UHGV virus genome: UHGV-0144129
Reading direction: 5' to 3' (one strand)
Length of the DNA: 39,244 nucleotides
From: a virus
Every line of letters begins with the position of its first letter. Position 1 is the first letter of the stretch. Positions 1,836-10,053 of the stretch are shown in pieces. Made by a program: the position numbers and the translations under genes. Below the pieces are notes generated by a model. That model was not told the origin of the DNA. It searched no databases and saw only the letters and a program-made list of their open reading frames with translations.

Positions 1836-2087
1836 CATAGTGCAGGGATCAAAATCATTCCCACTCAGCTATCAATGAGAAAATAAAATATAAATAAATC
1901 AATGCATTGAAACAAACCACTTAGCAGATACCACGAAAAATACCATGTCTCAATAATAGAGCTGTCTACAGGCTGTTCAGACGAACAATATGGCCGCTCT
2001 ACTCCTAATAGAGTCCTTAGCTCGGTCACATCACTAATTTCAACATAGATGTGAACAAAATGAGGCATCAACGCACCTATTCAGTTA

Positions 2088-3602
2088 GTGTATTTGATAT
2101 CGTATGTGGCAACAAAAAATGGAGTTACAATCTTGAAAGTAAGCGAGTTATCTAGCCAAATTGGCCGACTTTACGGCTTAAACAACATCAACATAATTAT
2201 GGGCCGAAACGGTGCGGGAAAAAGTCGTTTCCTTCGTGATATCGAACAAACAATCAGCCAGAACAAGCAGCAATTTTATGTCCGGTATGTAAGTCCAGAG
2301 CGAGCAGGATCGTTCAAGCGTGATGGCACCGTCCTCACAAATATGAGCGACAACCCCGAATGGCTGAGGCACACTCGGGCAGTTAATCAGGCAAGCAACT
2401 TCAAAGCTGCATCGGCTATGCTATTTCGCGAGGCCGAGACGCTTTACTTACGTCGACTTGCCAATACTCCGGAAATTCGAACTGATCTAACGCGAAACTT
2501 TCAGACAGACCGATTAAGTAAAATTAATCAGCTTCTCACTAACATTTCGCTCGAGATGGGTAATGTCGATTATGAGTTTCGATCACTTGTAGATGGTCAG
2601 ATTATTGATCCGGCCCAAATCAGTAGCGGTGAATCGGAAGCGGTTGCATTAGCCGCGGAAATCATCTATTTCTTCGACACAATAGATCCGGAGAAATTCA
2701 ACGTACTCCTCCTCGATGAGCCTGATGTACATCTGCACCCCGACCTCCAAGCTAGACTGGGCAAGCTGATAATCAGTATGCTCGACGAATTTAGAACACA
2801 CGCGAACAGTATTGCCATATGCTTATCCACCCATAGTTCCCCGCTCGTCTGTTCTCTTGCCGCCTCCCCATATGTATCAATCGGCACGAAGAGCTTTGCA
2901 GTGAATGAAATCTCATTGATACCGGCCAGCGATGAACTTCGAAAGATTGCACCATTCTTCGGGCACCCCCTATCGCTTTCTCTTAGCGAAGACGCTGCAT
3001 TAATTTTGGAAGGAGAGGACGACGAACGAGTCTGGCAACAAGCGGCCAGAACATCACAGGGTCGAATAAAAATCTTTCCCGTACTAGCAGGTAGCGTAGA
3101 TCAACAGAGTCAACTTGAGGATTTTTGCGTAGACCTCCTTAGTACACTCTATGACAATCCAATCGCCTTTTCCCTTCGTGATGGCGATGGTGTAATCAAC
3201 GAGTCGCTTGAACATCGCCTACCTCTTAAACGCTATCGCTTACGATGCTACGCTATCGAAAATGTTCTTTTGACTGATTCATGCCTTGCAGTAATGAATG
3301 TTACATGGGTGGAATTTGTAGACGCAGCCAAAAAATGGGTTGAGGATAATCAAACACACTCCGACATAGCGTTGATTGCAAAACTAATGGAATCGAACGA
3401 CCGATTGCGTCACAAGAAGATCAAGAAAATCCGCCAACTCGTCTGTGCTATTGTTGAGTGTAAAAAACCTTGGGAGGTAGTAGTTGGACAAGCAATCGGG
3501 GCATTGACCAGAGAAGACCTTGAAAACTCGAATATGTTGATCGATTTTCTTGGAGGAGAGATGGTCAGCGACGTCATCTTCAGGGACGCAATAAACCCAT
3601 GA
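2088..3602 (+). CDS. OLD-family-like ABC ATPase with Toprim-like nuclease domain (GajA / AriAB-like), putative anti-phage defence protein
   Basis: Walker A GRNGAGKS, ABC signature SSGESEAVALAAEI, Walker B VLLLDEPDVHLHP, H-loop LSTHS. C-terminal half has a Toprim-type glutamate (LILEGEDDE) and a DxD (LRDGDGV) about 60 aa later. Start uncertain: GTG at 2088 or TTG at 2133 preceded by GGAG. Confidence 0.55.
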   Translation: MYLISYVATKNGVTILKVSELSSQIGRLYGLNNINIIMGRNGAGKSRFLRDIEQTISQNKQQFYVRYVSPERAGSFKRDGTVLTNMSDNPEWLRHTRAVNQASNFKAASAMLFREAETLYLRRLANTPEIRTDLTRNFQTDRLSKINQLLTNISLEMGNVDYEFRSLVDGQIIDPAQISSGESEAVALAAEIIYFFDTIDPEKFNVLLLDEPDVHLHPDLQARLGKLIISMLDEFRTHANSIAICLSTHSSPLVCSLAASPYVSIGTKSFAVNEISLIPASDELRKIAPFFGHPLSLSLSEDAALILEGEDDERVWQQAARTSQGRIKIFPVLAGSVDQQSQLEDFCVDLLSTLYDNPIAFSLRDGDGVINESLEHRLPLKRYRLRCYAIENVLLTDSCLAVMNVTWVEFVDAAKKWVEDNQTHSDIALIAKLMESNDRLRHKKIKKIRQLVCAIVECKKPWEVVVGQAIGALTREDLENSNMLIDFLGGEMVSDVIFRDAINP

Positions 3603-3617
3603 GAATGACCTGATACT

Positions 3618-4013
3618 ATGACCACGATTGATCCGCCCTCATGGTATCAGTATTTATTTTATAACCCGCCTCTCAATACACCAAGAGATTGCGGTAAAGT
3701 GGAGCAGCATGATTACCAGCTTTATCTGGCGATAAATGATATTGAGCATACGAAAACGAAAGCAATGTCATCTAAGACCAATAGTATCTGCGAGCAGTTC
3801 CATAAAACGATACTGAACGAGTTTTATCAGGTGACGTTCCGCAAAAAGTTATATGATGATCTTGAAGCATTACAATCGGTTCTTGATGAATGGCGGGTTC
3901 ACTATAATAATGAGCGAACCCATCAGGGAAAAATGTGCAGTGGCCGAACGCCGATGGAAACGTTACTTGATGGAAAGCACATCTGGGATGAGAAAAACTT
4001 AAGCCAGATGTAA
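3618..4013 (+). pseudogene. C-terminal remnant of a DDE (rve-type) IS transposase
   Basis: KTNSICEQFHKTILNEFY ... YNNERTHQGKMCSGRTPMETL resembles the C-terminal end of an integrase-core domain (IS481/IS3-like). No N-terminal HTH or DDE core upstream. No inverted repeats recognised. Confidence 0.4.
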
Positions 4014-4100
4014 TCTGACAGATACCTTTATAAATAGCCGGTAATTGTCAGATCAGGTCTGATCTAATACAACTTAACTGTGTTATGAGCAATACTGAGG

Positions 4101-4877
4101 ATGGATATGGAACCAGAGAAATTTGCTGAAACTGCAATAGGATTTACCAAAAGCCCTCTTGGTATCATTGCACTCTTTATTGTTCTCGTTTATGGATTTG
4201 CCTCTTTCGTCGTTGGCTTTGGTAATGGCTTATCAGAGCATATAGCTCCCCTTATTTATTTCATGGTTTTCTTTCCTGTCATTGTGTTTCTTGGCTTTCT
4301 CTGGCTTGTTGCGAAACATCATAATAAGCTTTACGGGCCGTCAGATTTCAAAGATGAAAATAATTTTTTAAGAGCGCAAATAGCTACAGCAGCATCATTG
4401 ACCGCCGCCACAGCAAAACAGCCTGAAAATAGTGCAGGGGTCACTGAAAGCCAACTGCGAAAAATCGTCAACGTTGTATCCAATGCAAAACGGCAGAGTA
4501 AGCATGAAAAATGGCGAAATCGTATTTTATGGGTGGATGATCGACCAGAAAATAATGTTTACGAAAGACAGGCATTTGAGGCACAGGGAATAGAGTTCGC
4601 TTTAGCTCTTTCAACTGACGAAGCCTTAGAATTGTTAAAAACAAATAAGTTTGCAGCTATTATTTCGGATATGGATCGCAAAGAAGGGGCGCAAGAAGGT
4701 TATGTCTTACTAGAAAGATTACGCGCAATGGGAGACAAAACTCCTTTTATGATCTATGCGTCCTCAGATCTACCAGAGCACAAGAGAATGGCGAGAGAAA
4801 GAGGTGCAATTGGCTCCACTAATCGAGCAGAAGAACTCTTTCAAATTGTCATGGGTGCGATTACCAATGGCTCATAA
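4101..4877 (+). CDS. two-TM membrane protein with C-terminal CheY-like receiver (REC-like) domain
   Basis: Two hydrophobic helices at the N-terminus. C-terminus reads beta1 ILWVDD, beta3 AAIISDMDRKEG (Asp at acceptor position), beta4 FMIYASS, then a Lys-containing segment. AT-rich codon usage. Confidence 0.45.
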   Translation: MDMEPEKFAETAIGFTKSPLGIIALFIVLVYGFASFVVGFGNGLSEHIAPLIYFMVFFPVIVFLGFLWLVAKHHNKLYGPSDFKDENNFLRAQIATAASLTAATAKQPENSAGVTESQLRKIVNVVSNAKRQSKHEKWRNRILWVDDRPENNVYERQAFEAQGIEFALALSTDEALELLKTNKFAAIISDMDRKEGAQEGYVLLERLRAMGDKTPFMIYASSDLPEHKRMARERGAIGSTNRAEELFQIVMGAITNGS

Positions 4878-5092
4878 CAAAGCCATTAAATTCGCCCCCT
4901 ACGGCTACGGTTGCCGGGCGCTCACAACGGCCAGTATCTCATTTGTCGATTTGATCGATCTCATTGTAAGCACTTCCGGCTAGACTGTTTTGGAATACCG
5001 CCATTTTGTTGGTAATGGCTTTTATCTTTAGGCCATAGCCGATGTTATAGAGTTACGGCCTTAAAAATAGAAGTCATACACTCAATGAAAAA

Positions 5093-5130
5093 CCAATAAA
5101 AAATGCCAGTCAGCAAACTGACTGGCATTA
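5093..5130 (-). terminator. rho-independent terminator closing the phage late/lysis operon
   Basis: Perfect hairpin aatgccagtcag-caaa-ctgactggcatt. On the minus strand it is followed by a T6 run. Confidence 0.55.
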
Positions 5131-5273
5131 AAGTTAGTTGGAAAGGCTTAATTTACTATTTATAGCCAGTCCTACTCCCACTCAATTATTTACGGCATGC
5201 ATAACCAATTGACTGGTAACAACTTTCTGTAACCTTATTTTCACCGTACCGTTTTATATACCGTCACCGGAAA

Positions 5274-5771
5274 TCAGTGCCACGATTTTTGCTTCTTCAG
5301 TGAATCGTATTGCTGCTCGCAGAATTCCCCTGCGATACGATACTTTTCAGCCTCAGCTGCTGTTGCGTTGTAAACTCGGTTGCTTTCTTCAAGCATGTCG
5401 GCGAGCACACCGATGACCTTGCTGGCTGGCGTGCCAGGGGGGAAAGATCCGGTATAGTGTTCGGCGAGCCGCCTGGTTTTGTCAAGCTCGGCGCGCATGC
5501 TGTCAGCAGCGGAATTAGCATACTCAGCATCAGCACGCGCCGCATCGATACGGGATTGTGCTTCACGTTCAATTTGTGTTTTCTCCTGCTCACGCTGTGA
5601 CCTTAACTTATCATCAGCCTGTTTCTGATCTTCCTTCGCCTGAGCATACCCGGCATCGTACTGGCGGCTGCCATGCACATTCCAGGCAACAACGCAGCTG
5701 GCCACCAGAGCAGCAAGCATCGACACGATAAGCAACTGTTTCCAGTATGCTTTCACGAATGCCTTGATCAT
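5274..5771 (-). CDS. Rz-like i-spanin
   Basis: N-terminal TM (LLIVSMLAALVASCVVAW) then a charged coiled coil. Last gene of the lysis cassette. ATGA overlap with the upstream gene. Confidence 0.6.
   Translation of the reverse strand: MIKAFVKAYWKQLLIVSMLAALVASCVVAWNVHGSRQYDAGYAQAKEDQKQADDKLRSQREQEKTQIEREAQSRIDAARADAEYANSAADSMRAELDKTRRLAEHYTGSFPPGTPASKVIGVLADMLEESNRVYNATAAEAEKYRIAGEFCEQQYDSLKKQKSWH
5297..5545 (-). CDS. Rz1-like o-spanin lipoprotein, embedded in the +1 frame of Rz
   Basis: Internal Met of ORF 5297-5593 gives MRRVLMLSMLIPLLTAC with lipobox LTAC, followed by a Pro-rich mature part. Lies entirely inside Rz. Confidence 0.5.
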   Translation of the reverse strand: MRRVLMLSMLIPLLTACAPSLTKPGGSPNTIPDLSPLARQPARSSVCSPTCLKKATEFTTQQQLRLKSIVSQGNSASSNTIH

Positions 5772-5992
5772 ATACTTACCTTCGGCTGAAATCGGCGAAC
5801 GTTAATTGGCTCACCATATGGCCATGACCAATTCAGCCAGGTAAATGTTTTCAGCTCGCACATCGCATCGAAAAATTCACCAGGATCGATGTCGGAATAG
5901 CTGCAAACTATTTCCAGACCACGTTCTGTTTCTTGCAAAGCAACTGTATCTGTTTCCCAGCGGGGAATGAGCAAAGAAAATAGTTTATTCAT
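5768..5992 (-). CDS. hypothetical protein, translationally coupled between endolysin and Rz
   Basis: Start ATG at 5992 overlaps the endolysin stop (ATGA); its own stop overlaps the Rz start. 74 aa, Trp-rich, no family recognised. Confidence 0.4.
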
Positions 5993-6615
5993 AAAAGCAC
6001 CTTCTTGGCCGAAAGATACCGTACACGGCGATCGTCGATGCCGTTCCGGCCACCATTGATAATCAGAGTTACACGTGCAATATCGCCGGTATACTTCATG
6101 CATCCTTTGCTGGCGAAGAACCACGCCGCGCTACGAGCCGCGTATTCGTCCTGCACCAACAGTTCAGGATTCTCCAGCAGGTCCACTTTCAGGCCGTTTC
6201 CGCAATCACGATAGTTATTCAAACCGGTAATCTGGATAAGTCCGCGGCCACGGTAATTCCAGCCATCACCAGAGGCATTGTTCCCCATGCGTTTGCTGTA
6301 CACCAGATTGGCAATCGCACGCTGGCGCTCAGGTGGCAATGGTGGCTCGCCTGCACGACGACCCAATGCGTTAGCCTGTCCCTGAGTAAGACGACCGGCA
6401 CGAACGAAGTTAGCCAGTCCGGTGACGCTGTAATTGAAATTCTCCTGCAACCTGGTGAAGCCACCAGACTCATGCCCGACCTGAGCAATAAACATTGCCT
6501 GATCTTCGGGTTTTCTGATACCAAACTCTTTCATCGCAGAAGTTATATGCGAGAACCAGCGTGCGGCCAGAGCCTCGCTAATACCAGCAGCTCGCTGGAA
6601 TTGTTTAATCTCCAT
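5989..6615 (-). CDS. endolysin, glycoside hydrolase family 19-like
   Basis: Internal Met ([11 protein letters not shown]...) preceded by [16 protein letters not shown] matches the GH19 catalytic-region signature (AQxxHETGG). Follows the holin-like genes. Confidence 0.7.
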
Positions 6616-6913
6616 GTTTAGACCTCGATGTTTTGAAAATCTGAACAACGTTACCGCGTGTTTTAATAACCGCGGCAAGCATGACAGCGTTGATAATGAC
6701 CTCAGATAAATCCACAGCCATTGGCGTACGTAACCAGATTGCATAGGCGACACGAACAGGAATACTGGCCGCAGCAACAATAAGGAAATAAGCAAGCCAC
6801 CCTCCCCATCTTCGATGTTGAGAGCCGTTACGCCGGAATGTGACAACGCGAATTGCTATGCCAGTACAAATAATTGCATTGGTGATAAGCAAAACAAGCT
6901 CATTAGTTACCAT
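6605..6913 (-). CDS. holin-like small membrane protein
   Basis: 102 aa with 2-3 predicted TM helices and a basic C-terminus. Overlaps the endolysin start by 11 nt. Confidence 0.45.
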
Positions 6914-7313
6914 CGCCTTTTCTCCCAGGAATTAACTGGCGTGGATTATCAGAACGGTGATAGAGCCATATACCAATTCGCACTGCGACAATTGCTGACA
7001 CGAATGCGCCAGCAGAGAAAACAATCCCTTTCTCGAAAGAGTCCTGCGTGATGGTAGGTATCATGCTGGCTATTCCGATAAGAATTGATGTTGTTGGTTT
7101 GTAAAAGAGAAGACCACAAAGAAAGCTGAGTATCGACAAGAGTACACGACGACGAACAGGATACTCTACAGCAGAGGTAACAAATATTACCGCACCAGCC
7201 AGAGCACCGAGAGCCACCTCTGGCGGAACGCCGTAGACGACAGAGGCCAGCGCACCCAAGCTTAACCCTTGATTCAGTGAATCCGCCGTAACCGTGCCAT
7301 TCATGGTAACCAC
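6903..7313 (-). CDS. holin/antiholin-like membrane protein
   Basis: 136 aa with several hydrophobic helices, immediately downstream of the tail fibre gene and upstream of the endolysin. Confidence 0.4.
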   Translation of the reverse strand: MVTMNGTVTADSLNQGLSLGALASVVYGVPPEVALGALAGAVIFVTSAVEYPVRRRVLLSILSFLCGLLFYKPTTSILIGIASMIPTITQDSFEKGIVFSAGAFVSAIVAVRIGIWLYHRSDNPRQLIPGRKGDGN

Positions 7314-7401: not shown

Positions 7402-10053
7402 TTATTTTGATTCCAATAGTTCGAGTCGCTCTTCAATACGATCGCATCGGCGGCGCTGATATGCAGCCTCAAGCCAAGCGCACTGGTCAGGCCGTATGCC
7501 CCATGAACTACCCGCTTTTTTAACCAGCCTCTGTTCTCCGGTGTCATATTCGACGGTGACCAACTCACCAGACGCATCGGTAATCTCTTTAGTCGCGATT
7601 ACCGGCTCAAAAATATCGTCCCACTCGTCATAGCAAAGAAGGCCAAATCTGGTTCCATCAATTCCGTGCGCCAGGAATACATCTCTTACCTGCTGAGCCA
7701 TGACGCCAAAATGCCATCTGGCACCATCGCCCTTCATGGATATAGCGTCGAGCCATCGATACGCCACAACAGAAATATCGCCCCAGGCATCAAGAATGCT
7801 GTCTCTATCAGAAGAAAGCATTTCACTTAAATCTGATATTGCCTCGGGATTGGTTTTCAGCGTGGCATCTGATGAAACGGTTGGGGCATTTGCAAAGTAG
7901 GCGTCTTTAATACGAAACGATGCCTGACCAAAATTATAGGTATTGTCAGCAAACGGGCGAAGACCTGTATTATAAAACCGCCAGCGTATGGTTCCTCCCA
8001 ATGCTGTCGGGTCGCTGTTGCATGCAATATCCACCGTGGTGGCAGACCTAAACACAGAAGAACTACCGCCCAATACCAAGCTATTTGCGCTAGCTGTAGC
8101 CTGCTGGTCAAGGACCAATATTTTCTGAGAGTTTGTAGTTGCACCGGCATATGATGATGCAGTGATGCGGTTTAATTGGTTTGTATCAGGATCTGCGTTT
8201 TGCTGAATGGTTAAGTTAGATGCCCACTGTGCCGGTCGCTGGCGCACAAATACAAAGTCACCAGAAGGATTAGTTGCAACCAAATAACTAATGCCACTAT
8301 CAGATGAATAATAGTTGACTATAAAAGTCTGATTATTCGCATTCAGTATTTCAACATATGTGCTGGAAGGGATTGCCACGCCAGATATATCAGCAATGCT
8401 GACAGTCCCTGTGTAAAAATTAAATGCCTTCTGACTCATCTCCTGCATATAGCGAAGAATTTCAGTCATGTTAGTGAACAACGTACCATCTACAGGGTTA
8501 ACAATCCCCTTCGCACTACGGGGATATACCCCAATGCTCGCGTGATCGATATCAAATCCGCGGTAAAGCCTGGATGCAGGTGTAAAATCGATAGCATCTT
8601 TATCAGTGGAGAAATCTTCGAAAATAACCAAACCTGAATTGTAAGGTTCAGAGCCAGTTCTTTCCTGATGAATGTAAAGTGAATAAATGGATTTTCCATC
8701 CTGAGAAACACAAACGCCTTCATTTTCTATGCGAGTGACGTTCAATCCTGCGGCTTTCATTAAATCCATCATGGCCTGAGGATGAAGCATTGATTCAGTT
8801 CGCTTTGTACCGTCAGGGTTAAAAACTTTGCTGCCCTGATATTCGTTATATCCTGCGCTTCCTGCCCCATCAGCTATGAAGCCGCCATAGCCGCAGACAA
8901 AGTAGTTATCACCTACCGCAATACCCTGACGCTTGTTGAAATAAGGCGCATAAGGTGAGGTGCTTTTAGTTACATACCCAACATCATGTAACGGCAGCGT
9001 TATAGTTGACAGGCGATTGAAACCACTGTCGAACACTGCAAGTACAGTTCTTGTGATTTTCTGTCCTACTTCTGGCGCATTCTGCTCAACGAGCCATATA
9101 CCTCTTCTGTAGCTGAACTGGTTGAATAATCCAACATCATGGTTTTGTACAAGAGGCAGATTGCTTCCGTATAATGCCCCCTCCATATTAAATTCACGCA
9201 GTATTCCGTTTGTGTGACCAACAAACATTTTTTTTGGGCCATAGTCTGACGTAACCACGATTCCTTCAGCAGCGAAGCCTGGGCCGCCAGCCTGAACATA
9301 GAAATAACCTTGATAAATACCAGATATGTTAAATACTGCGACGACATTATTCGTCTGTTTAGGCTCAAATGGATAAGTGATGTATATCAAATCTTCGCTA
9401 ACGCAGAATCCTTGAGGATACATATAAGTTGCTGACGGGTTAGCAGCCATAATCGCATCATATTCAGGAAAAAGAAGCGGCATCGTAGCTACAATCTTTC
9501 TTTGGTGATTTGTAAAAATATCGTTTTTAGCGCTGTTAGGTGTAGGCGTTACACCTCCAGTAAAAAGATCATCAACATAACCTTTATTGACAGCATCGTT
9601 TCTGTCAGTGGCATTTGCTAGATTTGATATCTTATTATTTTTTGCATCATAATAGTTAGCCAGAATGCTTGGTTTTATAAGTGCTAACCTCATCCATGAA
9701 AAACACTTTTGAATAAGCATTGTCAGTTTATCGAACGCGTCTTCATGTACCTCAGCGAAGAACTTACCCTGATTACGCAAATCAGTATCCTGCGTAACCG
9801 GGAGCTCTCGTGATATAGAAATATGATAACCGTTAGCCAACGCCTTCGACAGAATTACATTACCGCCATTATATCCTCCAGCATTGGTTACTGTGTAGTC
9901 AGTATCCAGAACCAATTCTGTTACGTTCCCGTTCAGGTCAGACACCTGAACAACCAGGTCGGATTTTTTGAAAATACGGAAGGTATACGGAAATGATGTC
10001 GTAGCTCCGTTACCAGTGTATTCGTTGTGGTCAACTTCGGTTGAGACCGTCAT
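7402..10053 (-). CDS. tail fibre / tailspike with T7 gp17-like N-terminal anchor and C-terminal intramolecular chaperone (S74-type) domain
   Basis: N-terminus (YTGNGATTSFPYTFRIF...LDTDYTV) follows the T7 gp17 tail-attachment pattern. C-terminus (WHFGVMAQQVRDVF...GIDGTRFGLL) matches the auto-cleaving chaperone domain of endosialidases and L-shaped fibres. Position is after the internal virion genes, as in T7. Confidence 0.7.
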   Translation of the reverse strand: MTVSTEVDHNEYTGNGATTSFPYTFRIFKKSDLVVQVSDLNGNVTELVLDTDYTVTNAGGYNGGNVILSKALANGYHISISRELPVTQDTDLRNQGKFFAEVHEDAFDKLTMLIQKCFSWMRLALIKPSILANYYDAKNNKISNLANATDRNDAVNKGYVDDLFTGGVTPTPNSAKNDIFTNHQRKIVATMPLLFPEYDAIMAANPSATYMYPQGFCVSEDLIYITYPFEPKQTNNVVAVFNISGIYQGYFYVQAGGPGFAAEGIVVTSDYGPKKMFVGHTNGILREFNMEGALYGSNLPLVQNHDVGLFNQFSYRRGIWLVEQNAPEVGQKITRTVLAVFDSGFNRLSTITLPLHDVGYVTKSTSPYAPYFNKRQGIAVGDNYFVCGYGGFIADGAGSAGYNEYQGSKVFNPDGTKRTESMLHPQAMMDLMKAAGLNVTRIENEGVCVSQDGKSIYSLYIHQERTGSEPYNSGLVIFEDFSTDKDAIDFTPASRLYRGFDIDHASIGVYPRSAKGIVNPVDGTLFTNMTEILRYMQEMSQKAFNFYTGTVSIADISGVAIPSSTYVEILNANNQTFIVNYYSSDSGISYLVATNPSGDFVFVRQRPAQWASNLTIQQNADPDTNQLNRITASSYAGATTNSQKILVLDQQATASANSLVLGGSSSVFRSATTVDIACNSDPTALGGTIRWRFYNTGLRPFADNTYNFGQASFRIKDAYFANAPTVSSDATLKTNPEAISDLSEMLSSDRDSILDAWGDISVVAYRWLDAISMKGDGARWHFGVMAQQVRDVFLAHGIDGTRFGLLCYDEWDDIFEPVIATKEITDASGELVTVEYDTGEQRLVKKAGSSWGIRPDQCAWLEAAYQRRRCDRIEERLELLESK

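Follow-up and report, generated by a model that had tools for sequence, protein, structure and literature searches.

A receiver protein with a two-helix membrane hairpin, encoded by a fossil integron cassette beside guaA of Escherichia coli

Background

The viral genome UHGV-0144129, a stretch of 39,244 nucleotides (nt) that is called the window below, carries in the yfgI-guaA spacer of Escherichia coli a small gene that raises two questions: what may a membrane protein do that ends in a receiver (REC) domain and is accompanied by neither a kinase nor an output domain, and how did its gene reach this site? The original prediction, made from the sequence, had taken the product for an orphan effector or sensor of an undescribed system in a defence-island context, encoded in the same islet as an OLD-like nuclease. 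The protein is called 2TM-REC here for its two transmembrane (TM) helices and its REC domain. Its gene is, at the level of the family, a single-gene integron cassette, of which the window holds a fossil copy. The reading that fits best, held tentatively and at somewhat less than an even chance, is that of a self-contained, kinase-independent receiver switch that would gate a membrane effector and that may serve in defence.

Protein layout and receiver domain

The open reading frame (ORF) had been delimited as positions 4101 to 4877 on the plus strand. It proved intact, but the start at 4101 did not hold: translation likely begins at a second in-frame ATG two codons downstream (4107), because the sequence GAGG lies 6 nt upstream of it and the RefSeq annotation, which names the 256-residue product WP_000433086.1 "response regulator", starts there. 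With a GC content of 38-42%, the gene is AT-rich, as had been described. The two predicted N-terminal TM helices were recovered as hydrophobic helices at residues ~16-38 and ~48-69, read from the sequence and seen in an AlphaFold2 (AF2) model built from a 16-sequence alignment, in which long helices at residues 17-38 and 46-75, with a predicted local distance difference test score (pLDDT) of 54-69, are followed by a low-confidence linker. Since Lys and Arg are missing from the loop between the helices and TM2 is followed by four positive charges, as read from the sequence, both termini are expected to lie in the cytoplasm (N-in/C-in). Thus, 2TM-REC should be an inner-membrane protein with its receiver in the cytoplasm, joined to the hairpin by a poorly conserved helical linker. 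A conserved juxtamembrane motif, KHHNKLYGPSDF, was located directly after TM2. Mean column identity within the family was 95% for TM1, 92% for TM2, 84% for REC, and 63% for the linker; among 59 divergent representatives, the corresponding values were 71% and 64% for the two TM helices, 56% for REC, and 24% for the linker. The TM helices are therefore the most conserved region of the protein, unlike a passive anchor.

The C-terminal domain had been likened to CheY, and similarity searches at the level of profile, model and structure all returned a receiver. Pfam Response_reg (PF00072) matched residues 142-237 with 31.7 bits, barely above its cutoff of 30.2, while cREC_REC (E = 0.0057, 17.7 bits versus a cutoff of 27) and OKR_DC_1_N remained sub-threshold; NCBIfam gave weak matches alone, to the receiver portions of many regulators. 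In the AF2 model, residues 139-254 formed a (beta-alpha)5 domain with pLDDT of 82-93. The best 50 Foldseek matches in the PDB were all receiver domains or receiver-like proteins, with target TM-scores (template modelling scores) of about 0.75-0.85 for isolated receiver-domain chains at 15-25% identity; a TIR or SLOG fold was ruled out by this search. In alignments with the Francisella 1452 receiver, RcsC, and CheY, the residues D144 and D145 (in LWVDD) and D188 (in ISD) corresponded to CheY D12, D13, and D57, respectively, so that the Asp noted at the phospho-acceptor position is D188 (codon 4668-4670). All three are at least 90% conserved among 150 representatives. By both its fold and its acidic pocket, the 2TM-REC protein is a member of the REC superfamily.

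In classical regulators, a Thr and a Lys couple phosphorylation to a conformational switch. The position of CheY Thr87, a Thr or Ser after beta4, is occupied in 2TM-REC by Ala218, which was invariant in the 16-sequence alignment and which, across ~200 homologues, was Ala in ~165, Ser in 18, and Thr in 13. At the position of CheY Lys109 after beta5, the family is variable (Arg, Asn, Asp or Ser), and a conserved GSTN precedes it. The following Lys that had been cited as a receiver feature is K226, which lies in helix alpha4; the canonical Lys after beta5 is absent. The catalytic set of a receiver, with a conserved Thr/Ser and Lys, was thus found incomplete, and the domain is termed atypical because of this exchange of Thr for Ala and the loss of the canonical Lys. 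A family signature of the pocket loops, LWVDDxPxNN, ISDMGR, TPFxIYAGS, and GAxGSTN, was nearly invariant across all the fusion contexts described below, which indicates a putative conserved binding or catalytic site, not a passive scaffold. Two residues after the acceptor, position 190 (codon 4674-4676) is Asp in the E. coli/Klebsiella lineage (ISDMDR) and Gly (ISDMGR) in 202 of ~250 homologues.

Homologues and gene neighbourhoods

A word-indexed search detected 1957 homologues. The best 120 were nearly all 252-260 residues long and 67-92% identical to the window protein, and their hosts were Enterobacterales, Pseudomonas, Vibrio, Pseudoalteromonas, Acidithiobacillus, Nitrosomonas, and others. 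When one genome per species was scanned, full-length copies sharing 58-88% identity were found in hosts including Chlorobium, Flavobacteriia, Pseudobacteriovorax, and Vicinamibacterales, and an exhaustive HMMER search yielded 169 representative clusters at E <= 1e-30. Full-length homologues with 58-70% identity were also present in two archaeal metagenome-assembled genomes (MAGs), of Thermoplasmatota (locus L014) and Methanotrichaceae (L029), for which a binning artefact is possible. At L014, attC-like sites were observed on both sides of the gene; these could reflect archaeal integrons or mis-binning.

ORF clustering across 57 loci revealed no neighbour family shared beyond local synteny, which ruled out both the ATPase of the islet and any kinase as a partner gene. 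The annotated neighbours were unrelated housekeeping genes encoding transporters, acyl-CoA ligases, glycosidases, asparaginase, and LysR regulators. As had been predicted, the annotation of the 12 kb to each side of the gene in E. coli contains no histidine kinase, and the REC domain is an orphan without a classical output domain; the sole kinase-type gene near any of the loci encodes an unrelated HATPase_c protein (L026). Neither mark of a two-component system, a cognate histidine kinase nearby or an output domain on the regulator, was found. The supposed defence-island or prophage-cargo context is not the rule for the family, since homologues occur either as integron cassettes or singly, inserted next to housekeeping genes. 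A hint of the RADAR system in the P. cavernicola neighbourhood (an adenosine deaminase together with Ham1) was dropped, as the deaminase has only 270 residues.

These neighbourhoods bear on whether 2TM-REC could be a membrane-tethered single-domain regulator that is phosphorylated by host kinases and serves as a phosphate sink, connector or decoy. Single-domain receivers are well known as phosphate sinks, the Asp-Asp pair and the acceptor Asp are kept in almost all members, and the RefSeq name would suit such a role. A sink is also represented by DtcB in the Detocs defence system (10.1101/2023.01.24.525353). Nevertheless, a part in a host phosphorelay is considered very unlikely: the phospho-switch Thr/Ser and Lys are absent, the L026 protein is the nearest thing to a kinase at any locus, identities of 58-92% across phyla together with cassette mobility are at odds with co-evolution with a cognate kinase, the closest relatives join REC to TIR, caspase and restriction endonuclease (REase) domains, not to signalling outputs, and a sink would leave the extreme conservation of the TM helices unexplained. 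The earlier suggestion of a decoy for the host phosphorelay is likewise weakened by the missing Thr and Lys and by the mobility across phyla.

Integron cassette origin

The cassette nature of the gene was clearest in Acidithiobacillus concretivorus (L004), where it is the third same-strand ORF after a divergent intI (TIGR02249, 275.6 bits versus a cutoff of 265) and is followed, from its stop codon, by a textbook attC hairpin with a DNA fold z of -7.06. Variants of the REC clade were located beside intI at two further loci, L037 and L039 (457.5 and 448.7 bits to TIGR02249, respectively), and at all three loci the cassettes lie on the strand opposite intI. The Vibrio cyclitrophicus loci were superintegron-type arrays with short same-strand ORFs, toxin-antitoxin cassettes and insertion sequence (IS) insertions, and these arrays differ between strains. 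Since a genome-wide attC scanner gave ~40% false positives, only a test at the stop codon with random-position controls was kept; in this test, attC-like sites were present at 5 of 52 family loci versus 3 of 1080 random positions. Hairpins of attC that start from the stop codon were observed at L004, L007, L008, L014, and L065.

In the window, the 5' boundary, G|TTATGAGCAATA at 4082/4083, matches those of cassettes in Acidithiobacillus, Sulfuritalea, and Chlorobium, and the leader GTTATGAGCAATAAGGAG occurs directly after attC sites, upstream of the homologues, in Acidithiobacillus (L004), Sulfuritalea (L005), and Chlorobium (L007). On the 3' side, ~50 nt at 4875-4925 are ~90% identical to the attC that belongs to another cassette of the Chlorobium array. 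Possible attC stem arms at 4879-4888 and 5013-5022 are complementary as an inverted repeat; the 3' core reads TATC, not GTTR, and because this site is degenerate the far cassette boundary is uncertain. Locally, at 5000-5019, the 3' arm also folds into a terminator-like hairpin. The putative 150-nt attC fold had a z of -1.47 against shuffles, which is not significant; the window attC is therefore called a degenerate remnant, and the cassette assignment of this copy is founded on the homology of its flanks. No intI was found in the window, and E. coli has no integron at the islet locus, which is why the cassette is regarded as stranded there. Taken together, the 2TM-REC gene is a single-gene integron cassette at the family level, with a fossil copy in the window.

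In Psychroserpens (L020 and L021), short inverted repeats border the gene, with GTTGTACACA on its upstream side and TGTGTACAAC on its downstream side; they resemble the core and inverse-core sites of a different attC type.

Domain shuffling and proposed mechanism

The REC domain of the window protein belongs to a clade whose modules share ~45-64% identity with it, as compared with ~20-25% for generic receivers. Members of this clade were found after TIR domains (in 7 of the top 150 representatives, and at six genome loci besides), after caspase domains (2 of the top 150, one of them with an FGE-sulfatase domain as well), after HSDR_N REase-like domains inside very large STAND/AAA-TPR proteins, in nSTAND1 and ParA/MinD-TPR proteins, in an FtsZ-like protein whose N-terminal domain is of HEPN/RES type, and after another module, with a single TM helix, that is itself cassette-borne. 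In the multidomain relatives, REC stands straight after the killing domain, which makes effector-REC the unit that recurs; kinase, DNA-binding and cyclase outputs were all absent from the 25 listed of the 49 Pfam families matched in the top 150 representatives. Conversely, the 2TM module, which PHROG 26238 matches over residues 14-104, was found with other C-terminal domains, namely a PD-(D/E)xK-like domain (motif FDG...GIEIK, by our own reading), a beta-rich domain and a helical one. This exchange of both REC (with TIR, caspase, REase-like and STAND partners) and 2TM modules fits the earlier idea of a membrane effector gated by a flavodoxin-like domain.

Further proteins were recorded with these modules. 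Solitary TIR-REC proteins of ~310 residues occur in Bacteroidota and Chloroflexota (L031, L032, L035, L036, L040, and L043; P0194, P0209, P0251, and P0269), and the Glu of the usual TIR motif was seen in TIR-REC proteins by eye. On an IMG/VR contig (L077, 3451-4882), the gene immediately downstream of that for a CI/LexA-like repressor encodes a 213-residue protein, in which the 2TM module is combined with a different C-terminal domain; the position is typical for prophage exclusion and defence genes. P0223, which combines a MacB periplasmic domain with the TM module, may be a gene-call fusion and was left uninterpreted.

The joining of one domain to TM, TIR, caspase, and nuclease modules follows a sensor-effector grammar, and on that ground the receiver of 2TM-REC is taken as the probable switch and the TM hairpin as the probable effector. 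The receiver keeps a Mg2+/phosphoryl-type acidic pocket without the classical Thr/Lys switch. As the gene works as a lone mobile cassette and its receiver lacks the Thr and Lys, the cue is probably independent of the host and would not come from a cognate kinase; a small phosphodonor, a nucleotide-like ligand or a metal may provide it, and such a ligand, be it a phosphoryl donor, nucleotide or metal, is favoured by the preserved acidic triad and by the invariant loops of the pocket. The receiver would then control the packing or oligomerisation of the conserved TM hairpin, which in turn may perturb the membrane or block a membrane step, and the outcome would be growth arrest or exclusion under phage attack or other stress.

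The same set of fusions could be read in another way, with REC as a homotypic module, comparable to effector-associated or Death-like domains, that brings effectors tagged with REC (2TM, TIR, caspase) to STAND/TPR sensors which also bear REC and whose genes lie elsewhere in the genome; 2TM-REC would then be the executioner arm of a multi-gene system. The clade does occur not only on effector domains but also in STAND-TPR and ParA/MinD-TPR proteins, and receivers commonly dimerise via the alpha4-beta5-alpha5 face, a region (EHK...GAxGSTN...EL) that is strongly conserved in the family. Kaur et al. list receivers as effector-side domains of ternary conflict systems (PMC7159879, PMC8195603). Such an adaptor is nonetheless judged unlikely, as no REC-bearing NTPase or other conserved gene adjoins any of ~55 loci, a one-gene cassette that enters very different hosts, the archaeal MAGs included, would hardly be expected to depend on a specific partner, and REC directly follows the effector domain instead of occupying the terminus usual for adaptor domains.

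The strong conservation of the TM helices, the most conserved region, would also suit a hairpin that by itself excludes superinfection, blocks injection or has another membrane role, with REC serving only for stabilisation or dimerisation. The TM-module protein beside the CI/LexA-like repressor on the viral contig, at a site typical of exclusion genes, points the same way. Small TM proteins of integron cassettes have been reported to confer phage resistance by blocking injection (10.1101/2024.07.02.601719; 10.64898/2026.03.17.712381). A constitutive blocker is, however, quite unlikely, given that the REC pocket loops (LWVDDxPxNN, ISDMGR, YAGS, GSTN) are nearly invariant in all fusion contexts and that the same REC accompanies enzymatic killers which need gating, TIR and caspase.

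Several points weigh against the favoured reading of a receiver-gated membrane effector. The functions proposed are deduced from sequence and analogy. Without Thr and Lys, the putative pocket may never be phosphorylated, in which case REC may serve constitutively for dimerisation or as an adaptor. G190D beside the acceptor Asp may attenuate the E. coli allele or alter its kinetics; attenuation is suspected because the substitution falls on a mostly invariant Gly and because the copy in Rosenbergiella (see below) is a pseudogene. Most of the non-integron loci are not defence islands, and the homologues were not found on sequenced phages or true plasmids. PADLOC-DB v2 returned 0 families for the 2TM-REC protein at E <= 1, and in the fusion proteins the TIR or caspase parts match its models and REC never does. 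The attC of the window is degenerate and its 3' arm has the rival reading as a terminator hairpin, and the TM region was modelled by AF2 with low confidence.

A wider proposal is doubtful, although possible: 2TM-REC, together with the 1TM-REC, TIR-REC, caspase-REC, and REase-REC proteins, may form an unrecognised class of one-gene immune or stress modules in which a kinase-independent receiver senses a universal cue of infection or stress and unleashes a swappable killing domain, spread by integrons between bacterial phyla and possibly archaea. If the mechanism proposed for 2TM-REC is right, receivers would be stand-alone sensors that directly gate membrane, TIR, caspase or nuclease effectors and not the ends of relays, the Detocs precedent would extend to a simpler one-gene format, and a widespread family now annotated only as response regulator would gain a function. 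The family is compact (256 residues), extremely conserved and large, and is therefore easy to test.

The islet at guaA

The positions of the cassette and of the neighbouring features are given in Table 1.

Table 1. Features of the 2TM-REC gene and of the surrounding islet in the window
Feature	Position (nt)	Strand	Description and basis
2TM-REC coding sequence	4107..4877	+	256 residues and stop codon; ORF list, RefSeq coding sequence WP_000433086.1
TM hairpin	4152..4313	+	TM1 residues 16-38, short periplasmic loop 39-47, TM2 48-69
Atypical REC domain	4515..4862	+	Residues 137-252; Pfam, AF2, Foldseek PDB, phmmer versus 6ont and RcsC, CheY clade alignment
5' cassette boundary	4082..4106	+	GTTATGA core-site remnant, crossover G4082/T4083, conserved leader, GAGG ribosome-binding site
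attC-like 3' flank	4872..5029	+	Inverse core TCATAAC over stop codon; alignment, pattern search
Islet, 3.3 kb, in yfgI-guaA spacer	1858..5184 (insert ~1868-5172)		Flanking repeats, K-12 comparison
IS3-family transposase remnant, N-terminus missing	3690..4013	+	Pfam rve_3 5.5e-10; RefSeq pseudogene
ABC-type ATPase gene, OLD/PARIS-AriAB-like	2133..3602	+	Pfam AAA_15/AAA_21, weak C-terminal DUF4435; PADLOC

In K-12, the yfgI-guaA spacer measures 92 bp. The islet is flanked by direct repeats of a guaA 3'-end core, YTCCCACTCA, at 1858-1867 and 5175-5184; a search for this repeat gave 3 matches in the window versus 0.14 expected, the third (24172) being unrelated. By this repeat signature, the islet is a decayed integrative element that once targeted the 3' end of guaA. 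The segment comprising the ATPase gene, the IS remnant and the REC gene was present in 28 of 5426 complete E. coli genomes, always in the chromosome and at least 99.7% identical, and in most carriers the islet lies straight between yfgI and guaA without a prophage. The same islet was found at the same place in Kluyvera, with 98% protein identity. It offers a clean case of an integron cassette fossilised in the E. coli chromosome at a hotspot for phages and islands, the guaA 3' end, and one route for environmental cassette genes into pathogenic E. coli lineages.

The window also contains an epsilon15/phiV10-like prophage at the guaA 3' end, from ~5177 to 39244 with its far end past the window, in which spanin, endolysin and holin genes were located at 5274-7313; a tail fibre is encoded at 7402-10053. 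Integration at the guaA 3' end apparently happened twice, with the now decayed element coming first and the resident prophage later. The view of the REC gene as prophage cargo was not upheld, because this prophage is a later, separate insertion and the islet occurs without it; the "viral" matches in IMG/VR proved to be the same E. coli locus at the edge of a prophage prediction. With the islet limited to 28 of 5426 genomes, mostly prophage-free, the REC gene is neither prophage cargo nor part of the core genome.

Near guaA of Rosenbergiella nectarea (L025, ~7818-8629), a frame-shifted and truncated copy of the gene, a pseudogene, was observed with the same attC-like 3' flank; it shows the decay of a stranded cassette in another genus. 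In a Pseudoalteromonadaceae MAG (L009), the gene has an attC-like 3' flank, is followed by two small ORFs and adjoins xseA-guaB, a neighbourhood shared with E. coli at a different junction, which may be a coincidence.

Whatever the family does elsewhere, the E. coli copy could be a functionless rider of the degraded integrative element. It is carried by few genomes, no promoter of its own was detected above background, its attC is degenerate, G190D affects a conserved Gly, an IS remnant lies next door, and in Rosenbergiella the copy found at the same site near guaA is a pseudogene. A decaying passenger is still regarded as rather unlikely, for all 28 genomes have an unbroken ORF with at least 99.7% identity, the Kluyvera copy at the same locus is 98% identical, and read-through transcription is possible since the REC gene is co-directional with, and downstream of, the ATPase gene and the IS remnant.

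The OLD-like gene and the transposase remnant were both found beside the REC gene as had been described, with matches to AAA_15/AAA_21 and rve_3, respectively. The IS3-family remnant separates the cassette from the ATPase gene and ends a few bases upstream of the cassette boundary. The best PADLOC matches of the ATPase were PDC-M01A, AriA, and AriAB, and it forms a separate, widely transferred single-gene family, which spreads independently of the REC gene and whose members share 66-94% identity in Enterobacterales, Pseudomonas, Rhizobiales, and sphingomonads; it may be regarded as a candidate one-gene PARIS/OLD-like unit. A functional tie between the two genes was not borne out, as they co-occur in L001-L003 alone (the E. 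coli and Kluyvera islet) of the 57 loci. By eye, no convincing attC or cassette boundary was seen beside the ATPase gene. Brc59, an AriAB homologue, has been reported as an integron cassette.

Comparison with known systems

The view that 2TM-REC belongs to no described system held, in that PADLOC gave no match and full-text literature searches found no paper on such a protein; searches for the accession and for membrane-anchored receivers in integrons likewise returned nothing specific. The conserved co-occurrence with an ABC-ATPase/DUF4435 gene that would mark an OLD/PARIS (AriA-AriB) effector was not found.

In Detocs, a receiver gates cell-killing effectors, TM ones included (10.1101/2023.01.24.525353). 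The two share a receiver with an acceptor Asp and a swappable effector, of TM and REase types among others. However, Detocs is a three-gene operon of DtcA (a TPR histidine kinase), DtcB (a buffer receiver), and DtcC (a receiver-effector), none of which is adjacent at any 2TM-REC locus, and the receiver of DtcC is N-terminal, whereas that of 2TM-REC is C-terminal and lacks the phospho-switch Thr and Lys. By gene content and domain order, 2TM-REC is thus not Detocs.

Receivers independent of histidine kinases have been noted among conflict-system effectors and proposed as nucleotide-responsive switches (PMC7159879, PMC8195603). The systems described there by Kaur, Burroughs, Iyer and Aravind in 2020 and 2021 (vWA-MoxR ternary, iSTAND2, and TERNS3; cREC) resemble the present family in combining kinase-free receivers with a repertoire of caspase, TIR, REase, STAND, and TPR domains, but they are multi-gene systems of multicellular bacteria, whereas 2TM-REC is a lone cassette gene. 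In the searched passages of these papers, neither the 2TM-REC architecture nor its cassette mobility turned up.

The effectors of Pycsar, CBASS, and Thoeris are alike in joining a small TM module to a cytoplasmic ligand-sensing domain, as may be compared with the exchange of 2TM, 1TM, and TIR on the REC clade. In Pycsar PycTM, CBASS 2TM/Cap15-type and Thoeris ThsA TM variants, TM and TIR effectors interchange on the same sensor. These effectors respond to a nucleotide that a cyclase or TIR gene next to them produces, whereas no signal-producing gene accompanies the 2TM-REC family, and their sensors are of the cNMP-binding, SAVED, SLOG or Macro type, whereas that of 2TM-REC has the REC fold. 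The single similarity in PADLOC was a marginal one (E = 0.0077) between PycTM and a related TM module in L050.

About one third of the cassettes of unknown function that were tested gave phage resistance, many of them with TM helices (10.1101/2024.07.02.601719). 2TM-REC is like these cassettes, the BRiCs, in being a single-gene cassette with attC, and many BRiCs are small TM proteins (10.1101/2024.07.02.601719). A term search found no mention of a receiver-type protein among BRiCs in the mobile-integron or cassette-recovery papers, and 2TM-REC was not found on plasmid-borne mobile integrons.

Pseudo-receivers, finally, also keep the CheY fold with an incomplete catalytic quintet; in comparison with them, 2TM-REC keeps three acidic residues, loses only the Thr and Lys, and has a family-specific pocket-loop signature. 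With neither Thr and Lys, nor a kinase, nor an output domain, it is not a canonical response regulator. What is unusual in 2TM-REC is its one-gene format, its integron mobility across phyla and the very strong constraint on its TM helices.

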